From: a virus
Length of the DNA stretch: 64,000 nucleotides
Reading direction: 5' to 3' (one strand)
IMG/VR virus record: IMGVR_UViG_3300012953_000013
Location: 1 to 64,000 of that record
The notes below the pieces were generated by a model. It saw only the letters and a list, made by a program, of their open reading frames with translations. It was not told where the DNA came from and searched no databases. Each line of letters begins with the position of its first letter. Position 1 is the stretch's first letter. The position numbers and the translations under genes are program-made. Positions 29,100 through 50,677 of the stretch are shown piece by piece.

Positions 29100-29298
29100 T
29101 CATAGAAATAGCTTCCATCTTATCTCTTTGTTCTTCTGTCGCTTGATGCCAATTGATGCCAGATTCTTCCATATCATCTAATATTTCTTCGACATTGTCA
29201 ACAGCTTTAGACAACGTTAAAGCATAAGAATTAATTTTCTTTTCAATTTTTTCGTACTGGAGATTCTCTCTTGCTTTGCTTAAATCTATTAACTTCAT
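29056..29298 (-). CDS. Coiled-coil hypothetical protein
   Basis: 80 aa. Confidence 0.7.
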   Translation of the reverse strand: MKLIDLSKARENLQYEKIEKKINSYALTLSKAVDNVEEILDDMEESGINWHQATEEQRDKMEAISMIGLCMDTYASWIRE

Positions 29299-30329
29299 TT
29301 ATTCCTACTTAAAATATGAGTGCTACTTTCATAAGCGCCGGCCGAAGTTTGGCCAACAAAGCAGCTAGTTGCTTGAAACATTGGAATAGAAGTGCAGCCA
29401 GAATAAGAAAGCCCGCTTCTAATACCGGTACAGAGCTCTTCTAAAACTCCGGAAACGTGGCCCTTAAACGGAACAGTCGAAGTTACGCCCTCAACTGAAG
29501 CTGTATGCCCTCGCCAGTTAATTTGAGCATCTTTGCTAGCCATTCCCCTATATACCTTATATCTCTCGCCATTCCTAGACCTAACATCCCCAGGGGACTC
29601 AGAAGTTCCCGCCAACAAAGACCCAAGCATAACAAAATCTGCTCCAGCAGCAATAGCCTTGACTATATCTCCGCTGTTTTTTATACCGCCATCAGCAATA
29701 ATTGGAACTTCTCCAGCCAATTCAGAGCTCGAGCAATCCATAACTGATTGTAGGGTCGGCATACCATGACCGGTTTGGATTCTCGTAGAGCAAATAGACC
29801 CACCGCCTATTCCCACCCTAACCGAACTTGCACCCCACTCAGCCAAGTCTTCGTACCCTTCTCGAGTAGCTACATTTCCAGCCATTATGTGAATATCATA
29901 TCCAAAAGTATTTCGAAGATTTTTTAAAGCTTGGCGCATAAGTGCGTGGTGTCCATGAGCGATATCAACACAAATTATCTCTGCTCCAGCATCAAGACAT
30001 TTTCTAGATCTTTCTAGCATGTCATCCCCAACACCAACTGCAAATCCCACTTTAATAGAATTAGAATTTTTGCTGCTTCCCACAACGCTCTCTACGAGTG
30101 AAGCTTGCACGTCTGGAGAATTGTACCTATGAATAATGCCCAATCCTCCAAGTTCCGATATTTTTACAGCCATATCAGCTTCAGTAACCGTATCCATTGG
30201 AGAAGAAATAATCGGGAGTTGATATCGAGTATTTCCCAATTTGCTTGATATGTCTATTTCTTTTCGAGAAAAGACTTCGCTGTATTTTGGTACTAGCAAA
30301 ACATCATCAAAACTCAAACAGTTCTTCAT
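29295..30329 (-). CDS. guaB: IMP dehydrogenase / GMP reductase family, lacking CBS domains
   Basis: [46 protein letters not shown]; GMP reductase activity cannot be excluded. Confidence 0.85.
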
Positions 30330-30397: not shown

Positions 30398-30643
30398 ATG
30401 TTGGAAGATATTCACATAGGAGATGTTGTTAAGCTAAAAGGCCGGTATAAAGACGCGGGCAACATTGGCTTAGTGATCGACATTAACAAATCAGAATGGA
30501 TTGCTAAAAAAAGCGGATGGGTCTCATTTGACTTTGTTATCTTGAATGAAAGAGGAGAAATCATGAATGTTTCTGGTAGTTGTGTATCAGAGATAATAAA
30601 CTCTAATCAATCTCCATCGACTTGGCTTCCTGCAGGCTGTTAG
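30398..30643 (+). CDS. Small GDLV protein
   Basis: IHIGDVVKL. Confidence 0.7.
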   Translation: MLEDIHIGDVVKLKGRYKDAGNIGLVIDINKSEWIAKKSGWVSFDFVILNERGEIMNVSGSCVSEIINSNQSPSTWLPAGC

Positions 30644-31256
30644 TCATATTTATTATGCTATCCATACCAAGCTTCCTTGGTTTTCTGATTACTAAGGATA
30701 GCTTAAGAGTATCTTTGTTTGGCATTGAAGCGTTGAGTTCCATAACCTTGACTTTCTTTCTCTCCAGCATTTCTTTAATTTCATTTATTATTCCCGGGCG
30801 ATCATCCAAGGTTACTTTTAACGTGTGTGTCTTATAAGAAGTTAAAAATAGACCTTCAATCTTGTTAATTATCGTTAGAATAATAAAAACCGTCGCTGTG
30901 GTTATAGATGCCAGTTCATAATAGCCACTACCACATGCGATCCCTATTATAGCAGTTGTCCACAGAGAGCTAGCTGTGGTTAATCCTTTAATCGTCAACC
31001 CAGCCCTTAAAATGGCACCTGCACCAAGAAACCCAACTCCACTCACAACCTGCGCAACAATTCTCCCAGGATCAGAAGGTAAGTTTGGACTTGATATAAA
31101 TTGCGAATAATAAATAGAAATAATTGCTGCTAAAGCTGCACCAACAGCAAGAATCATATGAGTTCTTAATCCAGCTGGTTGCCCGTTAATTTCTCTTTCT
31201 AAACCTATTAAAGAACCGAGACCAGCAGCAACAAATATTCCGTATGGAATCTCCAT
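30603..31256 (-). CDS. MgtC/SapB family membrane protein with C-terminal ACT-like domain
   Basis: IGLERE, AGLRTH, DPGRIVAQVVSGVGFLGAG, GLTTASSLW. Confidence 0.9.
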   Translation of the reverse strand: MEIPYGIFVAAGLGSLIGLEREINGQPAGLRTHMILAVGAALAAIISIYYSQFISSPNLPSDPGRIVAQVVSGVGFLGAGAILRAGLTIKGLTTASSLWTTAIIGIACGSGYYELASITTATVFIILTIINKIEGLFLTSYKTHTLKVTLDDRPGIINEIKEMLERKKVKVMELNASMPNKDTLKLSLVIRKPRKLGMDSIINMTNSLQEAKSMEID

Positions 31257-31439: not shown

Positions 31440-31871
31440 TTACTCTTCCAATTCAACAATCTCAATAGTAAAATTCAACCTTTGACCAGCAAGCGGATGA
31501 TTGAAGTCTAGAGTTACATTCTCATCAGACTGCTCTACAATTTTTGCAATAAAAGGGAGGCCATTCGGAGCTTTGCCCTGAATAGAGCCGCCTATTGTAA
31601 ACTCAAAATGTTCTGGAAACTGGCTTCTTGGAATTACTTGAACCGCTTCAGGGTTTGTTTCTCCATAACCGTGTTCTGGATCGATGTAAAACTCTTTAGT
31701 TCCACCAACTTCCAAACCAACGCATGCAGCGTCAAATCCTGGAATCATTTCTCCAGAACCAACTTCAAAAGAAATCGGGTCTCGACCTCGAGAATTATCA
31801 AATTCTGTTCCATCGTCAAGAGTTCCTGCGTAGTGGACTTTAATTTTGTTGCCTTTTTGTACTGTCGTCAT
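31440..31871 (-). CDS. FKBP-type peptidyl-prolyl isomerase (SlyD/SlpA type)
   Basis: VHYAGTLDDGTEFD, GSGEMIPGFD, PEHGYG, LDFNHPLAG. Confidence 0.92.
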   Translation of the reverse strand: MTTVQKGNKIKVHYAGTLDDGTEFDNSRGRDPISFEVGSGEMIPGFDAACVGLEVGGTKEFYIDPEHGYGETNPEAVQVIPRSQFPEHFEFTIGGSIQGKAPNGLPFIAKIVEQSDENVTLDFNHPLAGQRLNFTIEIVELEE

Positions 31872-33734: not shown

Positions 33735-33812
33735 TGGTCGGCTGGCCGGGACTTGAACCCGGAACCCTCTGTTTATGAGACAGACGCTCTGACCTGATTG
33801 AGCTACCAGCCG
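33735..33812 (-). tRNA. tRNA with CAT anticodon (Ile2 or elongator Met)
   Basis: C1-G72 paired and no GGG/CCC anticodon stem, so not initiator; ~1.1 kb upstream of tilS. Confidence 0.9.
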
Positions 33813-33888: not shown

Positions 33889-36000
33889 TTAATTTTCAGG
33901 AGGTAAGCACAAACCCTCTAAGATTTGAACTAAAGAATTATACATTGAGATTGCGTTATCTGAAAGCTCGAAATAGCTACCGCTTGTCGCATCTGATATT
34001 TCATCCCAACCATAAGATTCGTTGGTTGAGAATGTAAAGATTTTAAGCTGGGGCGTGGCCACAGCGGCTTCAATCACAGTTTGAGTGTTTATTTCTGGAT
34101 CTAAATAGCTTTGCTCTTCTTCATCAGAAAAAACAATTATTATCTTATCGACGCCGGCTCGCCACGATACATCAAACTGGTCCTTTGGTGGGTGAGATTC
34201 TCCGACATCACCAGTCCAGTTAGATTGAGAAACATCTAAGGGGGCATTTCCTGAAATACTGTCGATAGACATATAAATCGCATCTAGTAACATTTCACTA
34301 CTCGTATCCATTCCGTCGTTTCCTAAGCCCGCAAAAGAAGCTAAGAAATCTGGAAATGGCGATATATCAGATATCATAAACAACCGGTCTTCATCGGCTC
34401 CTGGGAGATTTCTTGGTCCAACTATTAATCCCCACTGTACAGCTTCTTCTGCCTCAAAATTAATCGCAAATTGATTAAGAGCAGAGAGAACAGCGTTGAT
34501 TTCTTGATCCATTGATCCAGACCAATCTACTATAAATAAAACATCTGTGTCTGGAATCTCATTGCCCCAGTCTACTACTCCGTCGCAGTCGTCGTCTGCT
34601 CCATTGCAAATTTCGGCTGAAGGCGTCGTTTCTCCGACACATAATCCGGGCTGGAATTGATTTATTCCGTTTGTATTTCCCCAAACTCCTTCTATGCACA
34701 TAAACTCTCCAGAAGAACAGATCCCGACATTTAGAGTTTCTGGTGGACCAGTATAACATTGAGAAAACAAATCTTCATCTATATCCCCGTTACAGTTATC
34801 ATCATAATTATTGCAGTCTTCTTGTTCAAGAGGAATTCCAATAACTGGATCGCAAAATTCATTAGGGTCTTCAGGTAAATAAGCACACATTGCTTGACAA
34901 TCGGTAGTTACTATTTCTTCGCAGCTAGGGTCTACGCAAACGCAAGTTTTATAACCTAAACCACACACCATTGGTGCTTCTAAACAAGGGAAAAAAGCCC
35001 CAAGGTCATCTATACTGCACAGGCACTCTAAGCCCTCATCTATATTTCCGTCGCAGTCATTGTCGAAACCGTCGCACACCTCTTCTTGTGGCTGGTCTGC
35101 TGTACAAGAAATCCAAGAACCACTTGAACAAGTTTCAAAACCTGGGCCGCAAATAGTGTTACATTCTTGAATTAGGTCTTCATCTATAGCGCCATCACAA
35201 TTATTATCAATTCCGTCGCAGATTTCTTCAGGGACTGGGCCGCAAGATCCGCACTCATTTGTTTGACCCTCATCAATTAAGTCATCGCAATCGTTGTCTA
35301 GGTAGTCACAGATTTCTTCTTGGGGTTCAGGGCCAAAACAAATTTCTTCTCCCTGTACACAAACAGCATTTCCAGAACCGCACTCGTTTTCGCATGGGGT
35401 TACCCCCAGATCTTCGTCTACTACGCCGTCACAGTCGTCATCCGACCCATTGCAGACTTCTGGACTGCAGGGTTGGCATGGGCCGTGAAAGAGTTGCCCT
35501 TTGTTACACCAAATCTGTTGTTTTCCAAAAGTGCCATCTTCTAATTCACAGTCATACCATTCTATAAAATCTGCTGGGGCTAAAGGATTACACTCAAAAG
35601 CTAATTCACATTCTCCTTGACTTAATATCTCAGGAGGCGGGCATCCGTCATCTTGTCCATAAATACATGCATTGTTGTTCTCGTCACAGACATCGACCAA
35701 GACAGTCATAGTTCTTATGGAGTTATCTGGTGTTGGAGGGCAATACCATTGTTGGGATTTGCAGCATTGAGGGTTACAAGCGCACCAGCCTGAATGAGAA
35801 TTCGATTCAACTGAATCACATGGATCAACTTCTACATCTGGAACGTCTGGAACTCCTATTTCTAAAATAGGGATATCAGCATCAGGGTAAACATGCAGTC
35901 GTGGGCCTTCGTCAAAATCGCCCTCTCCGTTGCGTTGATCTGAGCACGACCAAATCAATGGGAGCGCGATCAGAATTAATCTGGTCCAGCGCATCGCCAT
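33889..36000 (-). CDS. Lipoprotein with six MopE-type (ExCDGxDNDCDGxxDE) repeats and a C-terminal vWA domain
   Basis: LIWSC lipobox; six repeats; MIDAS DWSGS and IIVFSDE. Confidence 0.85.
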   Translation of the reverse strand: MAMRWTRLILIALPLIWSCSDQRNGEGDFDEGPRLHVYPDADIPILEIGVPDVPDVEVDPCDSVESNSHSGWCACNPQCCKSQQWYCPPTPDNSIRTMTVLVDVCDENNNACIYGQDDGCPPPEILSQGECELAFECNPLAPADFIEWYDCELEDGTFGKQQIWCNKGQLFHGPCQPCSPEVCNGSDDDCDGVVDEDLGVTPCENECGSGNAVCVQGEEICFGPEPQEEICDYLDNDCDDLIDEGQTNECGSCGPVPEEICDGIDNNCDGAIDEDLIQECNTICGPGFETCSSGSWISCTADQPQEEVCDGFDNDCDGNIDEGLECLCSIDDLGAFFPCLEAPMVCGLGYKTCVCVDPSCEEIVTTDCQAMCAYLPEDPNEFCDPVIGIPLEQEDCNNYDDNCNGDIDEDLFSQCYTGPPETLNVGICSSGEFMCIEGVWGNTNGINQFQPGLCVGETTPSAEICNGADDDCDGVVDWGNEIPDTDVLFIVDWSGSMDQEINAVLSALNQFAINFEAEEAVQWGLIVGPRNLPGADEDRLFMISDISPFPDFLASFAGLGNDGMDTSSEMLLDAIYMSIDSISGNAPLDVSQSNWTGDVGESHPPKDQFDVSWRAGVDKIIIVFSDEEEQSYLDPEINTQTVIEAAVATPQLKIFTFSTNESYGWDEISDATSGSYFELSDNAISMYNSLVQILEGLCLPPEN

Positions 36001-36069
36001 ATTTTTAAGTATATGATTTTTTTAAAGACTTGAAAATATTTTTTCACTCGTGATACTATATTTAAAAAT

Positions 36070-36465
36070 ATGAGTATAGAATCAATAGGCAATCAAGCCA
36101 CAACATGGGGTGTAGGAGCGATCAAATCTTCAGCTGCTCTAGGCACCGAAAAATCTGAAGAACAAACTATAAACAAGATACAAGAAAATGAAAATAAAGC
36201 TGTAAGCAACGATAAAGTATCTAAAATACAGCAAGAATTTACTTCTTTAAGTACTCAAGATTTTGTATCTCTAAGACAGCAATTTTCTCAAGGCTCTTTC
36301 GAAATTTTAGATGAAGTTATTTCTGATATGAAAGAAGATACTGAAAACGTCGGGAAAGCTATAGAAGCTATATCAGAACTCATTAAGAAAACTTCTAAAG
36401 ACCATATTGGTTTAATGGTTTTAGAAAAAACTCTTGAAGCTCTAAAAGAAAACGAACCAAAATAA
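36070..36465 (+). CDS. Helical hypothetical protein
   Basis: 131 aa; divergent promoter region; followed by terminator. Confidence 0.7.
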   Translation: MSIESIGNQATTWGVGAIKSSAALGTEKSEEQTINKIQENENKAVSNDKVSKIQQEFTSLSTQDFVSLRQQFSQGSFEILDEVISDMKEDTENVGKAIEAISELIKKTSKDHIGLMVLEKTLEALKENEPK

Positions 36466-36493
36466 AAAAGCGCGGGGGATAAACCCCCGCGCT
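36464..36493. terminator. Terminator between convergent genes
   Basis: 10 bp stem AGCGCGGGGG/CCCCCGCGCT. Confidence 0.8.
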
Positions 36494-36516
36494 GTCAAAT
36501 TATTTCACTTAACTAT

Positions 36517-36786
36517 TTACTGAACGTTAGTACCAGCATCGACTTCGTCATTAACGTCTTGAACCTCTGTAGCAGCATTTTCCGTATTAACAGTATTTGT
36601 TGTAACAGAATTTACTTGGGTCGTCTCAACATTATCGACAGGGGCCGAAGCAGTATTTACTTCTTCAGTTTCTGAAACTGCTGGATTGTAGTTATACACT
36701 CCATACGCTCCAAAAGCTACGAGCCCAGTGAAAATTGCGAGCTGCAACTTTTTTTCAGCCCACACGGTCTTAAACCAATTAAACAT
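36517..36786 (-). CDS. Membrane-anchored T/N/V-rich protein
   Basis: One TM helix and a low-complexity tail; AGGAG RBS. Confidence 0.75.
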   Translation of the reverse strand: MFNWFKTVWAEKKLQLAIFTGLVAFGAYGVYNYNPAVSETEEVNTASAPVDNVETTQVNSVTTNTVNTENAATEVQDVNDEVDAGTNVQ

Positions 36787-36847
36787 ATCAAATAACTCCT
36801 AGTTGATTGTAGGCATCTATAAACCCATGCCTTCCTGCGGTTTACGA

Positions 36848-36988
36848 TTACTCTTCTACTGAAGAATCTTCGCTAGAGCCAGAATCTGCTACCTCTGCTG
36901 AATCTGACGCTGTATCTTCTTCTTTGTCGCCGCATGCAGCTAAAAGCAAACCAGCAACTGAAAGAAAAACCAAACTGCGAATTAACAT
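36848..36988 (-). CDS. 46-aa acidic lipoprotein
   Basis: Translated by hand: MLIRSLVFLSVAGLLLAAC-GDKEEDTASDS...; AAGGAG RBS. Confidence 0.75.
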   Translation of the reverse strand: MLIRSLVFLSVAGLLLAACGDKEEDTASDSAEVADSGSSEDSSVEE

Positions 36989-37030
36989 AAAGTCTCCTTC
37001 ACTCGGTAAGAGTGGATTATTCGCTCAAAC

Positions 37031-37058
37031 AAAAAAGGCACTCCAAAGGAGTGCCTTT
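37031..37058 (-). terminator. Intrinsic terminator ending the large ncRNA
   Basis: AAAGGCACTCC-aaa-GGAGTGCCTTT with U6 on the minus strand. Confidence 0.85.
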
Positions 37059-37743
37059 AGATATAAAAAAATGAAACCCTCAGCACTTCTCGGTTCCACC
37101 TCGTGACCATCAAACCTTTTGAGTCTGTCCCCTTGCGGGTTAGATGTAAGCACACGGAATAGTTAGTTCCTTCACGAGCTTTCTCCCTGTTCTTGATCGG
37201 TAAGGATCACGGAACAGCACGCCCTACTATCGCCATAACATTCTGCGCTCATTTGAGTAAGCTGTACACTTCCCCTCTAATTTGCGCGCCACATTTCCAA
37301 ACCTTGGGTGGATGTCCATGTGACCCCTTTCGGGACGGTAGTTTTGTTGCCAATTCTACCAGAGAGACTTCTGTTACCGACAGTTGAATTCTAGAGGATC
37401 TTAATGGAAACTCTTTCCCAAGCCTTTCAGTTTGGTTATTGCCCTTATCCCGTTTTCGCGATGAATTCACAAGTCCGCGAATATCTTTGGCAGCAATTCC
37501 TCAGTGGTATGAGGACTCTTACCTTAGACTACTGGATGATATTCAGAGGTACCACCCCCTTTAACTCATCCCCTCTCTTAGTTTGGCGGCATGCCGTAAG
37601 ACCGACACCTTCCAAATCGAGGTTTTCTCTACCAACCGCTTTCGCCGCTTCTCAGGAGCCAGTAATTCCACCTGAGTTTTGAGACCCGAGAACTAGGGTC
37701 TATACCTTTCTAAGTTTTTAAAGATCGAATTAATTTATTAATT
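37031..37743 (-). ncRNA. Large structured ncRNA (~710 nt), GOLLD/ROOL-like candidate
   Basis: Raised GC, no credible ORF, many nested stems, GCAA/GAAA tetraloops on the minus strand, own promoter and terminator, inside a tRNA region. Confidence 0.7.
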
Positions 37744-37749
37744 ATCTGT

Positions 37750-37778
37750 ATTATAATGATGATTCATGCAATGTTCAA
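37750..37778 (-). promoter_or_regulatory. Sigma70-like promoter TTGAAC-N17-TATAAT for the large ncRNA
   Basis: Read directly. Confidence 0.7.
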
Positions 37779-37792
37779 TAAAAAGTTAATTT

Positions 37793-38260
37793 TTATTTTG
37801 TGTGAGAATCAGCAATAAAAGCCGCCCATGAATAAGGCTTAACTCTACACTTAAAGCCTGCGCCTTTTACCCATCCATTAACAGCATCGACAAAAACTCT
37901 AGTAGCTGATCTATGAGTTCTGCCGATATCTACATGGACCTCAATGTCTGCTTGAGGATATTTTTCTATTAAATCCATAGCAATGTCGATAGAATTTTGC
38001 ACTTCTTTCATTATTCTCACTCTTAAAACTGTATATTTTTCTCTTTTCAGTTTTTGTCTGTTGAAAAAATATGTTGCATAAAATTTATCTACTTGGCCGT
38101 GCAAGCAAATAGTTGTTACAAAAGTACACCTATCACTCTTAACTTGGCTATCGGTGCCTATAAATACTTTCCCACCGCCAACAATATATTTGTCGATCCG
38201 AGCCATCAGATCTGTAAAGGGTATGGGATCTCCCGATCCTGTAAACCATCGGTCTTTCAT
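37793..38260 (-). CDS. RNase H-like YkuK family protein
   Basis: VFIGTDSQ, KEVQNSI, IEVHVDIG, KPYSWAA...AD. Confidence 0.8.
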   Translation of the reverse strand: MKDRWFTGSGDPIPFTDLMARIDKYIVGGGKVFIGTDSQVKSDRCTFVTTICLHGQVDKFYATYFFNRQKLKREKYTVLRVRIMKEVQNSIDIAMDLIEKYPQADIEVHVDIGRTHRSATRVFVDAVNGWVKGAGFKCRVKPYSWAAFIADSHTK

Positions 38261-38320
38261 TAACGCACCATATAACTTTAACTATTTGAGTATTAAGTTT
38301 TTTTCATAAATTGTCCAAAA

Positions 38321-38397
38321 TGGTCGGGATGGCAGGATTTGAACCTGCGACCCTCTGCTCCCAAAGCAGATGCGCTGCCAGACTGCGCTACACCCCG
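38321..38397 (-). tRNA. tRNA-Pro(TGG)
   Basis: Cloverleaf, loop TTTGGGA, CCA. Confidence 0.95.
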
Positions 38398-38533
38398 TAA
38401 ATCTGTCGAATTGTTTTTAGTTATCCCATATCATATTAAAAAGGTTACTGGAGGTGGTGCTCCCTCTGTTCACCTGCTTGTATTAAACCAAAGCACCTTA
38501 GCTAAAAACCATTCACTGATTTATAAAAACATT

Positions 38534-38770
38534 TTAATCTCTTTTTTTTACTATCTCTACACTTCCATCTGGTCTTCTAATTGTTATACCTTCCCAATCG
38601 CAAAAATCTTTCAAAGTCCCACCTGGCTTTAAATTGCAAGTTGATGTTTCTGGATGATTTGAACACCTTGCAAAACTTTTGGACCCCGGTGCTGTATTGT
38701 TGTGAGACCAAACAATGGGCTCAGAACACTTGGGACATAATTGTAGTTTTTTTAATCTAGCCATATTCAT
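38534..38770 (-). CDS. Zn-ribbon hypothetical protein
   Basis: CPKC...C...C...C. Confidence 0.65.
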   Translation of the reverse strand: MNMARLKKLQLCPKCSEPIVWSHNNTAPGSKSFARCSNHPETSTCNLKPGGTLKDFCDWEGITIRRPDGSVEIVKKRD

Positions 38771-38779
38771 TTAAATATA

Positions 38780-38855
38780 TGGAGCGGGTGATGAGACTCG
38801 AACTCACAACATTCAGCTTGGAAGGCTGACGCTCTACCAATTGAGCTACACCCGC
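38780..38855 (-). tRNA. tRNA-Gly(TCC)
   Basis: Cloverleaf, loop CTTCCAA, CCA. Confidence 0.95.
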
Positions 38856-38862
38856 ATATAAA

Positions 38863-39744
38863 TCATTCAACATGACCAGTTCCTATAACTTCCCACTTCA
38901 TATGACTCTGAAAGATTCCTCCTAAATCTTGGGAACTAATTAATTCTATTCTATGTCTAATAAAATGTACAGCCGCAATTGAATTAATTGGAAACTGCTG
39001 TATGTAAGAACCCGGAATAATCATATATCCAGAGTCATCATCCATGCAACTAACTGCTCCTAAAAAAGTCGAGCCATCTGAACTATAAACAGCAACTATT
39101 ATTTCAAACTGAGAATTAGGGACTGAAGGGTACCAATTGAATGTCGTTCCAGATTTACTAATCACTGCTTCATACGCGTAAGATGGATCAACCCACAAAA
39201 GCGTATAAGGTTCTATAGAATCAAAACCCTCTAGAGTTTGAAAAGCATTAACTATCGTGCCATTTTCACTGGACACCGTATGAAAAGTATTTCTACTATA
39301 CTCATGCTCTAATAAATTAGTGTTAGACCAAGAACCATTTCCTGAAGGATAAAGGGGGATACTGTTAAAGTACGCTGGTTGTGTTGATGGCATTCCTTGA
39401 GAAGAGACATAAGTTTCGTATATATCGGTTTTACATGTCCCAACTTCTGTCAAATGGCTAGTATAGTCAGCAGCTGTTGGCAAATGCTGTTTTAATTCAG
39501 CAACAACTTGAATTTCGCTGCTAACTCCTAAGCAAGCTTGACAAGCTACTTGCTTAAAGTGAATTTCTGCGAATCCCACCAGTAAATCCGAAATAGAATC
39601 ATTTGTGTCAACTGAACTGCTCGTATCAGTATCTACCGTTATATTATCTTGCTGCTGCGCTGTGTCATTATTTGGCAGCTTCATTATACTAACATCTTGG
39701 CTGCAAGCCAAAAACGCTAAAGACACTATGATATTTCCAAACAT
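38863..39744 (-). CDS. Lipoprotein, beta-rich
   Basis: SLAFLAC lipobox; T/D-rich linker. Confidence 0.8.
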   Translation of the reverse strand: MFGNIIVSLAFLACSQDVSIMKLPNNDTAQQQDNITVDTDTSSSVDTNDSISDLLVGFAEIHFKQVACQACLGVSSEIQVVAELKQHLPTAADYTSHLTEVGTCKTDIYETYVSSQGMPSTQPAYFNSIPLYPSGNGSWSNTNLLEHEYSRNTFHTVSSENGTIVNAFQTLEGFDSIEPYTLLWVDPSYAYEAVISKSGTTFNWYPSVPNSQFEIIVAVYSSDGSTFLGAVSCMDDDSGYMIIPGSYIQQFPINSIAAVHFIRHRIELISSQDLGGIFQSHMKWEVIGTGHVE

Positions 39745-39749
39745 AGCGC

Positions 39750-39908
39750 TTACACAGATTTTAGAAAATTATAAAAACAAATAATAGCAAAAAAAGATCC
39801 AAGAAGGCCCCAACCATAATTGCCGTGATAGAAAGAGTTTACAGCAAAACCGCAATTAAAAGCTGCACAAGCAAAACTAAATGCGGAACTATTTAAAAAA
39901 TTAATCAA
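39750..39908 (-). CDS. 52-aa membrane peptide (TTG start)
   Basis: Translated by hand; hydrophobic. Confidence 0.45.
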   Translation of the reverse strand: MINFLNSSAFSFACAAFNCGFAVNSFYHGNYGWGLLGSFFAIICFYNFLKSV

Positions 39909-39935
39909 TTGTCATCCCTCAAAAATAAATTAAAA

Positions 39936-40012
<77 letters not shown>

Positions 40013-50187: not shown

Positions 50188-50548
50188 TGGTGGAGGCGGC
50201 GGGAGTCGAACCCGCGTCCGCAATAGTCTAAGTTTGAGTCATTCACAAGCTTAGTTGATTAATTCCCTAACCAACAAGGTATCTCGAAAAAATCCATCCA
50301 TCCGCATCGAGAATTAGGATCCACCTGTTAAAACAGGGTAACCGATTTTTGATCTTATTTATTTCAGTGAGATCAACCACTTATCCTAAATTGGTTAGAT
50401 GGCCTTAGGAAGCCACCCGATTAAGCTGCTAGAGCGTATTCGTAATTGTCGTTATTGTTGGCAATTATAGTTGTTGAACTTTTAAGGTTGTATCTTACCT
50501 ACTTGCACTCTCCCCCGGATTCTACCCCGTCGAAACCGTGACGCCCCC
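50188..50548 (-). ncRNA. ssrA: tmRNA, tag (A)NNNDNYEYALAA
   Basis: 5' GGGGGCG...TTCGAC; 3' TTCGACTCCCGCCGCCTCCACCA with G3-U70; tag ORF 50421-50462. Confidence 0.96.
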
Positions 50549-50553
50549 TTAAA

Positions 50554-50616
50554 TTAACAGCAACTTTTGCATTCGCATGTGCAACATTCGCAGCACTTAC
50601 AATTTTGATTTTTCAT
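50554..50616 (-). CDS. 20-aa metallothionein-like peptide MKNQNCKCCECCTCECKSCC
   Basis: 9 Cys of 20; AAGGAG RBS; TTGAAA-N17-TATAGT promoter upstream. Confidence 0.6.
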   Translation of the reverse strand: MKNQNCKCCECCTCECKSCC

Positions 50617-50677
50617 ATCAAACTCCTTTTAAGCCGGTTGTATTTCTAACTATACTCTGATTCTCCAAAATTTTCAA

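Follow-up and report, generated by a model that had tools for sequence, protein, structure and literature searches.

What kind of gene, if any, occupies a G+C-rich stretch of phage DNA in which the longest open reading frame (ORF) has at most 92 codons? The question is raised by positions 37028 to 37778 of the first 64 kb of IMG/VR virus record IMGVR_UViG_3300012953_000013 (184,866 base pairs (bp) in total), and these 64,000 nucleotides (nt) are the window of our analysis. The record encodes a Gp23-type major capsid protein and therefore represents a T4-like phage, whose capsid protein stays below 50% identity to the capsid proteins of all cultured phages. An earlier note on this DNA had proposed a giant structured non-coding RNA of about 710 nt with its own promoter and terminator, pointing to an elevated G+C content that we can confirm (0.44 to 0.47 inside the region compared to 0.33 to 0.40 in its flanks). 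Our results indicate that positions 37778-37028 on the minus strand are almost certainly a complete, stand-alone gene for a structured non-coding RNA, flanked by an RNaseH-like (PF04308) gene at 37793-38260 and a small lipoprotein-like ORF at 36988-36848. The proposed size fits the primary transcript of ~715 nt, while the conserved body of the RNA is smaller, with 658 nt (37726-37069).

Homologues and conserved fold

Homologues of the RNA were reached through the capsid-gene loci of related phages, which were searched with nhmmer, and the invariant words of the resulting pairwise alignment were then scanned in viral and metagenome contigs. The first homologue lies directly behind the capsid gene of a related phage (locus L039; E = 9.5e-100), and 108 stretches with invariant words were recovered from metagenome contigs, nearly all from marine samples. 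An initial, guessed motif (CCGTCCCGAAAGGGGTCA) gave no match in viral contigs, with relatives differing at its last base, and the upstream RNaseH-like protein as query recovered no related viral loci. Profile matches now total 121, with 94 of full length and 77 distinct sequences that are 62% to 100% identical in pairwise comparison (median 76%) and 647 to 683 nt long. The copy in the window is 66% to 86% identical to the other members and aligns to positions 2-657 of the family profile (E = 2.2e-179).

Across the 77 distinct homologues, which form the alignment used for all structure tests (alignment A2), the fold is conserved by compensatory mutation. The nested consensus calculated with RNAalifold comprises 179 pairs in 37 helices, and 96.5% of its 13,758 cells are standard pairs, compared to 39% to 44% when the 3' partners are slid by 1 to 3 columns. 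Changes on both sides are seen in 109 of the 179 nested pairs, so that covariation among homologues, which the earlier note had named as a check, speaks for the proposed RNA; the covariation score of 0.390 (0.200 in shuffles) was reached by 0 of 500 shuffles. A mutual-information scan followed by inspection of neighbouring columns gave five further helices (a 6-bp loop-loop contact, a 7-bp long-range helix, a 2-bp loop contact, a 5-bp pseudoknot and a 4-bp junction helix), which together are 98.3% paired and changed on both sides in 14 of 24 pairs. The full consensus including these five pseudoknot or long-range helices holds ~40 helices and 197 pairs, 188 of which are formed by the window copy, and the single-sequence fold of the minus strand scores z = -3.6 against shuffled controls. 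G-U pairs make up 12% of paired cells and would be A-C mismatches on the opposite strand, which fixes the RNA on the minus strand as originally called.

The RNA region is not coding. The four local ORFs are open in only 3, 6, 32 and 13 of the 77 homologues, and segments of frame-changing length occur at them in 36 to 55 of the 77; none of the overlapping ORFs is conserved, in keeping with the earlier proposal. ORFs of 42 to 92 codons overlapping the region could still be taken as traces of a decayed protein gene, or the region as a chance G+C-rich spacer without function, but this reading is refuted, with a probability that we consider practically nil, by the lack of a conserved ORF, by the 109 base pairs with compensatory changes and by the 77 distinct homologues of 62% to 100% identity and nearly fixed length (647 to 683 nt).

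The conserved RNA is built from the following parts:

37069..37726, minus strand: conserved RNA body of 658 nt, delimited by nhmmer, alignment A2, RNAalifold and pair counts
37572..37700, minus strand: 5' domain, consisting of a hairpin, an 8-bp helix, a variable GNRA arm and a three-helix arm
37700-37683, minus strand: hairpin GACCC[..GUUCUC]GGGUC of the 5' domain, with an invariant loop
37676-37668/37658-37651, minus strand: 8-bp helix of the 5' domain, in which 8 of 8 pairs covary
37650-37633, minus strand: variable arm of the 5' domain, capped by a GNRA loop
37622-37572, minus strand: three-helix arm of the 5' domain
37555-37550 with 37509-37504, minus strand: 6-bp loop-loop (kissing) contact of GUGGUA with UACCAC that joins the tips of two neighbouring arms, 97.6% paired
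37469-37463 with 37391-37385, minus strand: long-range pseudoknot helix of 7 bp, 99.6% paired, with 4 of 7 pairs changed on both sides
37325..37334, minus strand: CCC-GAAA-GGG tetraloop hairpin, 100% paired, with a GAAA loop in most members and GCAA in four
37182..37232, minus strand: most conserved core, GAUAGUA.GGCGUGCUGUUCCGU ... AAGAACAGGGAGAAAG, marked by invariant alignment columns and containing the hairpin 37217-37205/37198-37187
37074..37179, minus strand: 3' domain with its closing helix 37179-37172/37106-37099
37139-37130, minus strand: GCAA hairpin in the 3' domain
37146-37143/37111-37108, minus strand: helix in the 3' domain
37152-37148 with 37088-37084, minus strand: 3' pseudoknot of UGCUU with AAGUG in the loop of the last hairpin, 99.7% paired, with 3 of 5 pairs covarying

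All five stems that the earlier note had drawn from the single sequence are kept across the 77 homologues: 37100-37106/37162-37168 corresponds to the closing helix of the 3' domain, 37187-37192/37212-37217 to the consensus helix CUGUUC/GAACAG, 37499-37514 to a consensus hairpin at 37515-37498, 37651-37656/37671-37676 to the 8-bp helix and 37682-37701 to the consensus GACCC...GGGUC. Both minus-strand GNRA hairpins (GCAA at 37139-37130 and GAAA at 37334-37325) are conserved in the family as well. In the loop-loop contact, column pair 231/274 switches from U-A to A-U in 19 sequences, and the covariation data fit a contact within one molecule or between two. Three of four pairs covary in the helix of the 3' domain at alignment columns 665-668/724-727, and long invariant unpaired segments lie between the covarying helices of the family alignment. 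The GGAGA of the core (37186-37182) may pair with UCUUU near the 5' end (37724-37720), a pairing that is invariant across the family and thus neither supported nor refuted by covariation.

The carriers of this family are large (~200 to 320 kb) uncultured marine phages, and those checked are mostly T4-like. One copy each is present in complete genomes with terminal repeats of 203,859 and 293,409 bp and in a 94%-complete record of 316,664 bp. Two divergent copies were seen on the 14-kb marine contig L200 (5411-6082 and 13038-13710), and they represent the two subtypes of the RNA, which are told apart by the 3' pseudoknot (CUU/AAG vs UGC/GYA) and by a 3'-domain insertion. The sole match in the species-genome collection is NHDW01000006.1, a 305,838-bp contig of the metagenome-assembled genome "Methylococcaceae bacterium TMED69". 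This contig also encodes a Gp23 capsid protein and an FKBP gene and, judged by this gene content, is almost certainly the genome of a jumbo T4-like phage mis-binned with a bacterium; the Methylococcaceae label could be a weak hint at the host or a mere binning error. No copy was detected by blastn at E<=10 among the 50,697 GenBank phage records, which gave only chance matches of 24 to 35 nt, and none by BLAST in 12 related large phage records that are fragmentary or possibly carry divergent copies. In a complete 293-kb relative, the Gp23-type capsid protein is encoded as two tandem paralogues of 640 and 631 amino acids (G015:C1:176509-180120).

Relation to known large RNAs

Outside ribosomal RNA (rRNA), RNase P RNA and introns, elaborate conserved folds are very rarely seen in RNAs longer than 600 nt, and GOLLD and ROOL are the only two such phage classes known so far, both of them recently shown to form RNA-only nanocages (PMC12286853). 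No published description of the RNA family reported here was found in the literature searched, and the elements in a large survey of candidate viral structured RNAs measure ~67 nt on average (PMC10690425).

Does the RNA belong to one of the known classes? The earlier note had suggested "a GOLLD-like RNA or a new class", and only the second half of this suggestion stands. Rfam 15 gave no match at gathering thresholds and none relevant for 36900-37900 at E<=10 with lax filters, and nine diverse homologues matched no Rfam family at E<=1. The models of RNase P RNA, group I and II introns, transfer-messenger RNA (tmRNA), rRNA, OLE, raiA and HEARO are without a match at the RNA locus. The GOLLD model (RF02032; gathering score 150 bits) likewise has no match at the locus at E<=10, and its best hit in the 185-kb genome scores 5 bits at an unrelated place. 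The ROOL model (RF03087; gathering score 99.1 bits) has none at E<=10 at the locus or in the genome and none at E<=1 in the nine homologues; its whole-genome search is weak alone, with control genomes also giving nothing, and the direct cmscan of the locus and homologues agrees with it. An rRNA fragment was considered and rejected, with no match of the family profile hidden Markov model to the E. coli rrnH operon at E<=100 and no match to an Rfam rRNA model. Because the matches that define GOLLD and ROOL were sought and are lacking, we hold with high confidence that the RNA family is distinct from both; we read it as a new class among the giant RNAs of phages, resembling GOLLD and ROOL in niche and complexity and being a member of neither.

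Like GOLLD, the RNA is a very large, ornate RNA of phages or prophages, often located within tRNA islands or next to them (a tRNA-Met stands just upstream of one marine GOLLD; PMC12286853), with many pseudoknots and no conserved ORF. Unlike GOLLD, which measures 800 nt or more, it has ~660 nt and varies little in length, and it lacks the variable 5' half and the tRNA-bearing linker of GOLLD; the 14-mer cage of GOLLD has been shown by experiment, whereas an assembly of the RNA described here is hypothetical. The likeness to ROOL lies in a length of ~580 to 660 nt, the phage or prophage origin, the tRNA-island setting, multiple pseudoknots and a conserved loop-loop contact; for ROOL, what had looked like a tertiary contact in covariation analysis proved intermolecular (PMC12286853). 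The two differ in their carriers, which are rumen and Firmicutes phages for ROOL and uncultured marine phages, mostly T4-like among those checked, for the RNA described here. OLE (RF01071) and raiA (RF03072) are also large, highly conserved non-coding RNAs with complex folds, but their genes are located on the chromosomes of Firmicutes and Actinobacteria and not in phages. A resemblance in setting, with no homology claimed, exists to the stable non-tRNA RNAs "species 1 and 2" (rnaC/rnaD) encoded in the tRNA cluster of phage T4, which are small (~120 to 140 nt) and are co-transcribed and processed with the tRNAs.

Transcription, processing and role

How would such an RNA be made, and what could it do? 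The bounds of the gene and its 5' end hold three elements, and both the promoter (37778-37750) and the terminator hairpin with its T-run (37058-37034) that the earlier note had placed on the minus strand are present:

37750..37778, minus strand: sigma-70-type promoter with -35 TTGAAC at 37778-37773, a 17-nt spacer and -10 TATAAT at 37755-37750, matching 10 of 12 consensus positions
37028..37058, minus strand: intrinsic terminator, an 11-bp hairpin AAAGGCACUCC-UUU-GGAGUGCCUUU followed by a U-run (T-run to 37034)
37716..37726, minus strand: boxA-like element GAUCUUUAAAA, with which the conserved RNA begins; its motif in the family is G-N-U-C-U-U-U-N-A-N-A

From the position of the promoter we infer a transcription start near 37743. 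In the family, a -10-like hexamer lies 8 to 26 nt before the conserved start in 47 to 50 of the 77 members, with 12 nt as the commonest spacing, and a G+C-rich hairpin with a U-run ends many members without a tRNA behind them, as seen in the 3' flanks of the alignment.

The RNA gene lives in phage tRNA islands, on the strand of the tRNAs. The window contains nine tRNA genes and one tmRNA gene, all on the minus strand, among them tRNA-Pro and tRNA-Gly at 595 and 1054 nt upstream of the RNA. All tRNAs listed within 600 nt of family copies are on the RNA's strand, with a few farther ones opposite. A tRNA lies less than 120 nt upstream in 20 copies, many at 6 to 10 nt (CAU is the commonest anticodon, and Lys also occurs), and less than 150 nt downstream in 9 copies, several at 4 to 9 nt. 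With tRNAs abutting the RNA by 4 to 10 nt, the RNA would be part of the tRNA operon transcript in those phages and would probably be released by tRNA-processing nucleases.

This setting bears on two other explanations. A long cis-acting leader or trailer, i.e., the 5' untranslated region of a downstream gene or the 3' untranslated region of an upstream one, would be in line with the FKBP isomerase gene that starts 27 to 86 nt downstream on the same strand in ~17 other loci and with the small lipoprotein-like ORF (36988-36848) that comes next in the window. However, the 11-bp terminator parts the RNA from this ORF and the promoter parts it from the upstream gene, the nearest feature found in 27 of the 94 full-length matches is not an mRNA but a tRNA, at most 120 nt upstream or 150 nt downstream, and the flanks vary across the family, where the RNA can have the capsid gene, various small ORFs or tRNAs (on one side or on both) as neighbours. 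The varying flanks largely refute a leader or trailer, and we regard it as extremely unlikely. The direct abutment to tRNAs could instead suggest a ribozyme such as a phage RNA-processing enzyme for neighbouring tRNA transcripts or a self-processing element, and so could the size of the RNA, its pseudoknots, its GNRA loops and the invariant nucleotides at its junctions, as they are typical of large ribozymes. Against this, RNase P, group I/II intron and self-cleaving ribozyme models are all without a match at E<=10, the gene is not inserted in another gene and hence no intron, no conserved cleavage-site signature was seen, and host RNase P together with 3' nucleases can release tRNA-flanked copies without any activity of the RNA itself; catalysis thus appears very unlikely to us.

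The boxA-like motif is found at the same place, the first eleven conserved bases, in 72 of the 77 distinct members, and it matches both boxA copies of the rrnH operon in E. coli, where the 16S leader contains GCTCTTTAACA and the spacer from tRNA-Ala to the 23S gene contains GCTCTTTAAAA. The positions reported as critical for recognition by NusB-NusE are G2, C5, U6 and U8, the last of which stacks on F122 (PMC3177189). These four are invariant in the RNA family, and only position 3 varies. BoxA recruits SuhB and keeps Rho from terminating transcription in long untranslated sequence (PMC4807359). As in rrnH, where one boxA precedes the 16S gene and a second one follows the spacer tRNAs ahead of the 23S gene, the phage motif opens a long structured untranslated RNA directly after a promoter or tRNA. 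Unlike there, the RNA behind it has no rRNA similarity (nhmmer at E<=100; Rfam small- and large-subunit rRNA models), no boxB or boxC was identified, and NusB-NusE binding is here only predicted from sequence. On balance, we lean slightly towards a functional boxA, i.e., towards transcription of the phage RNA by an rRNA-type antitermination and chaperone complex.

Parts of the stretch are present in runs from 12 studies, and 11 of the 20 runs listed are RNA libraries. Contigs of four marine metatranscriptome studies cover 37081-37687, several without any difference, as well as tRNA genes (35000-40000 was examined), which agrees with the transcript that the earlier note had presupposed. The same contigs give no cover on the flanking protein genes at 35000-37000, 37793-38260 and 38863-39744, where the lack of cover is not evidence on expression. 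Altogether, we take these data as a hint, weak to moderate in strength, at the presence of the RNA in seawater RNA.

The explanation that we favour, with some confidence, is a stable architectural RNA that is made in the manner of rRNA and acts during infection, possibly as a multimer. The window copy would be transcribed from its own sigma-70 promoter, whereas in other phages the RNA would be made inside a tRNA operon and cut free by tRNA-processing nucleases. The invariant 5' boxA-like element would recruit the host NusB-S10 antitermination and chaperone complex, which would let the 660-nt untranslated RNA escape Rho-dependent termination and fold during its synthesis. The mature RNA may then serve in infection as an architectural particle of the kind suggested for GOLLD and ROOL, made of RNA only or also containing host proteins and possibly multimeric, and is probably connected with the translation-related gene island of the phage.

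Several points weigh against this explanation. On their own, the consensus matches of promoter and terminator do not exceed chance expectation (3 promoter-like sites found with 3.2 expected, 3 terminator-like sites with 1.3 expected). The boxA match is just 9 fixed positions, with position 3 being A in the window copy and C in E. coli, whose boxA was used for comparison and may not be that of the host, and the 5' bases could be conserved instead as the 5' strand of the closing helix UCUUU/GGAGA. The metatranscriptome contigs show neither ends, strand nor level of the RNA, DNA carry-over in RNA libraries is possible, and the 5' and 3' ends of the RNA and its abundance are inferred. Neither multimerisation nor a protein partner is indicated by the data. 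Finally, several related phages (capsid ~64% to 67% identical; one 93% complete) have no BLAST-detectable copy, and the RNA is therefore dispensable for the wider group.

Self-assembly in the manner of GOLLD and ROOL, which we consider by analogy, is a tentative and rather doubtful component of this architectural reading. An extended form of it would make the RNA a third, independently evolved giant phage RNA class with RNA-only quaternary structure, produced via hijacked host rRNA antitermination and chaperone machinery through the 5' boxA and acting in the takeover of translation, e.g., by enclosing or scaffolding tRNAs, ribosomes or Nus factors. We judge this combination distinctly unlikely; if it were true, the loop-loop contact 37555-37550/37509-37504 would be an intermolecular bridge like that of ROOL.

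Alternatively, the RNA could be a ribonucleoprotein or protein sponge whose invariant purine-rich single strands bind host ribosomal proteins, Nus factors or translation factors that are thereby sequestered or redirected. The long invariant unpaired segments between covarying helices and the boxA-like element, a known type of protein-binding site, fit such a role, as do the location among translation-related phage genes (tRNAs, tmRNA, PP-loop/TilS-like) and the cold-shock-domain gene that 12 copies have at a distance of ~126 nt. Analogous cases are OLE RNA, which binds bS21, and GOLLD, which pulled down ribosomes (PMC12286853). However, no protein family is specifically linked to the RNA, with the neighbouring FKBP being widespread in marine phages without the RNA nearby, and no ribosomal-protein leader or other Rfam motif was matched. 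We rate the sponge as unlikely, and note that it overlaps with the architectural RNA and does not exclude it.

A third unrelated class in phage tRNA islands would mark giant ornate RNAs as a recurring phage invention. With more than 100 members across many ocean metagenomes, a near-fixed length and a well-determined fold, the family is a ready target for cryo-electron microscopy, and the window adds a member that has a promoter and a terminator of its own. How such RNAs are produced can be approached through the boxA-like 5' end, which is a concrete handle on rRNA-type antitermination and also a possible route to function via host Nus factors.

Neighbouring genes

The commonest protein-gene neighbour of the RNA is a SlyD-like FKBP peptidyl-prolyl isomerase, found near it in 42 loci and within 3 kb in 28 of the 94 non-redundant copies. 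In the window, its gene lies at 31440-31871 (minus strand) between tRNA-Thr and tRNA-Lys, and it was not found in four relatives without the RNA. As a dedicated partner the isomerase was rejected: more than 535 viral stretches carry the family, and the RNA is within 6 kb in 1 of the best 80 loci, so that the FKBP gene is a shared resident of the island. RNaseH-like (PF04308), PP-loop and cold-shock neighbours were also dismissed as conserved partners, each occurring in just 6 to 12 copies. The RNaseH-like gene of the window (PF04308/DUF458, YkuK-type; 37793-38260, minus strand) is located directly upstream of the RNA's promoter, and this gene recurs 61 to 2000 nt from the RNA in loci L115, L150, L151, L159 and L190.

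A conserved sequence of the form CCGCAGGGAGGCAUGGGAUUACAGAUGCCUCA lies between the 3' end of the RNA and the FKBP gene in L098, L131, L145, L146, L150, L155, L179, L190, L198 and L206. It could form a 7-bp hairpin, GAGGCAU/AUGCCUC, that would bury a Shine-Dalgarno-like GGAGG and an AUG, and may thus be a translational control element. Just past the terminator, the 46-codon ORF at 36848-36988 (minus strand) is probably a real small lipoprotein gene, with AAGGAG as a strong ribosome-binding site and LLLAAC in a lipoprotein-like signal.

Further residents of the island include a PP-loop gene (TilS-like, PF01171; 32052-32678, minus strand) near a CAU tRNA (33735-33812, minus strand). A CAU tRNA directly precedes the giant RNA in many relatives, and it may be a tRNA-Ile2 needing lysidine rather than tRNA-Met. 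A one-piece tmRNA (50188-50548, minus strand; 120 bits) encodes the tag peptide ANNNDNYEYALAA and is overlapped by an Rfam "permuted tmRNA" match at 50421-50623. Genes of the IMP dehydrogenase/GMP reductase and MgtC families (29295-30329 and 30603-31256, both minus strand) are auxiliary genes of the same island, and 33889-36000 (minus strand) encodes a 703-amino-acid protein, unusual for a phage, that has four putative metal-binding repeats of the MopE type and weakly matches von Willebrand A.

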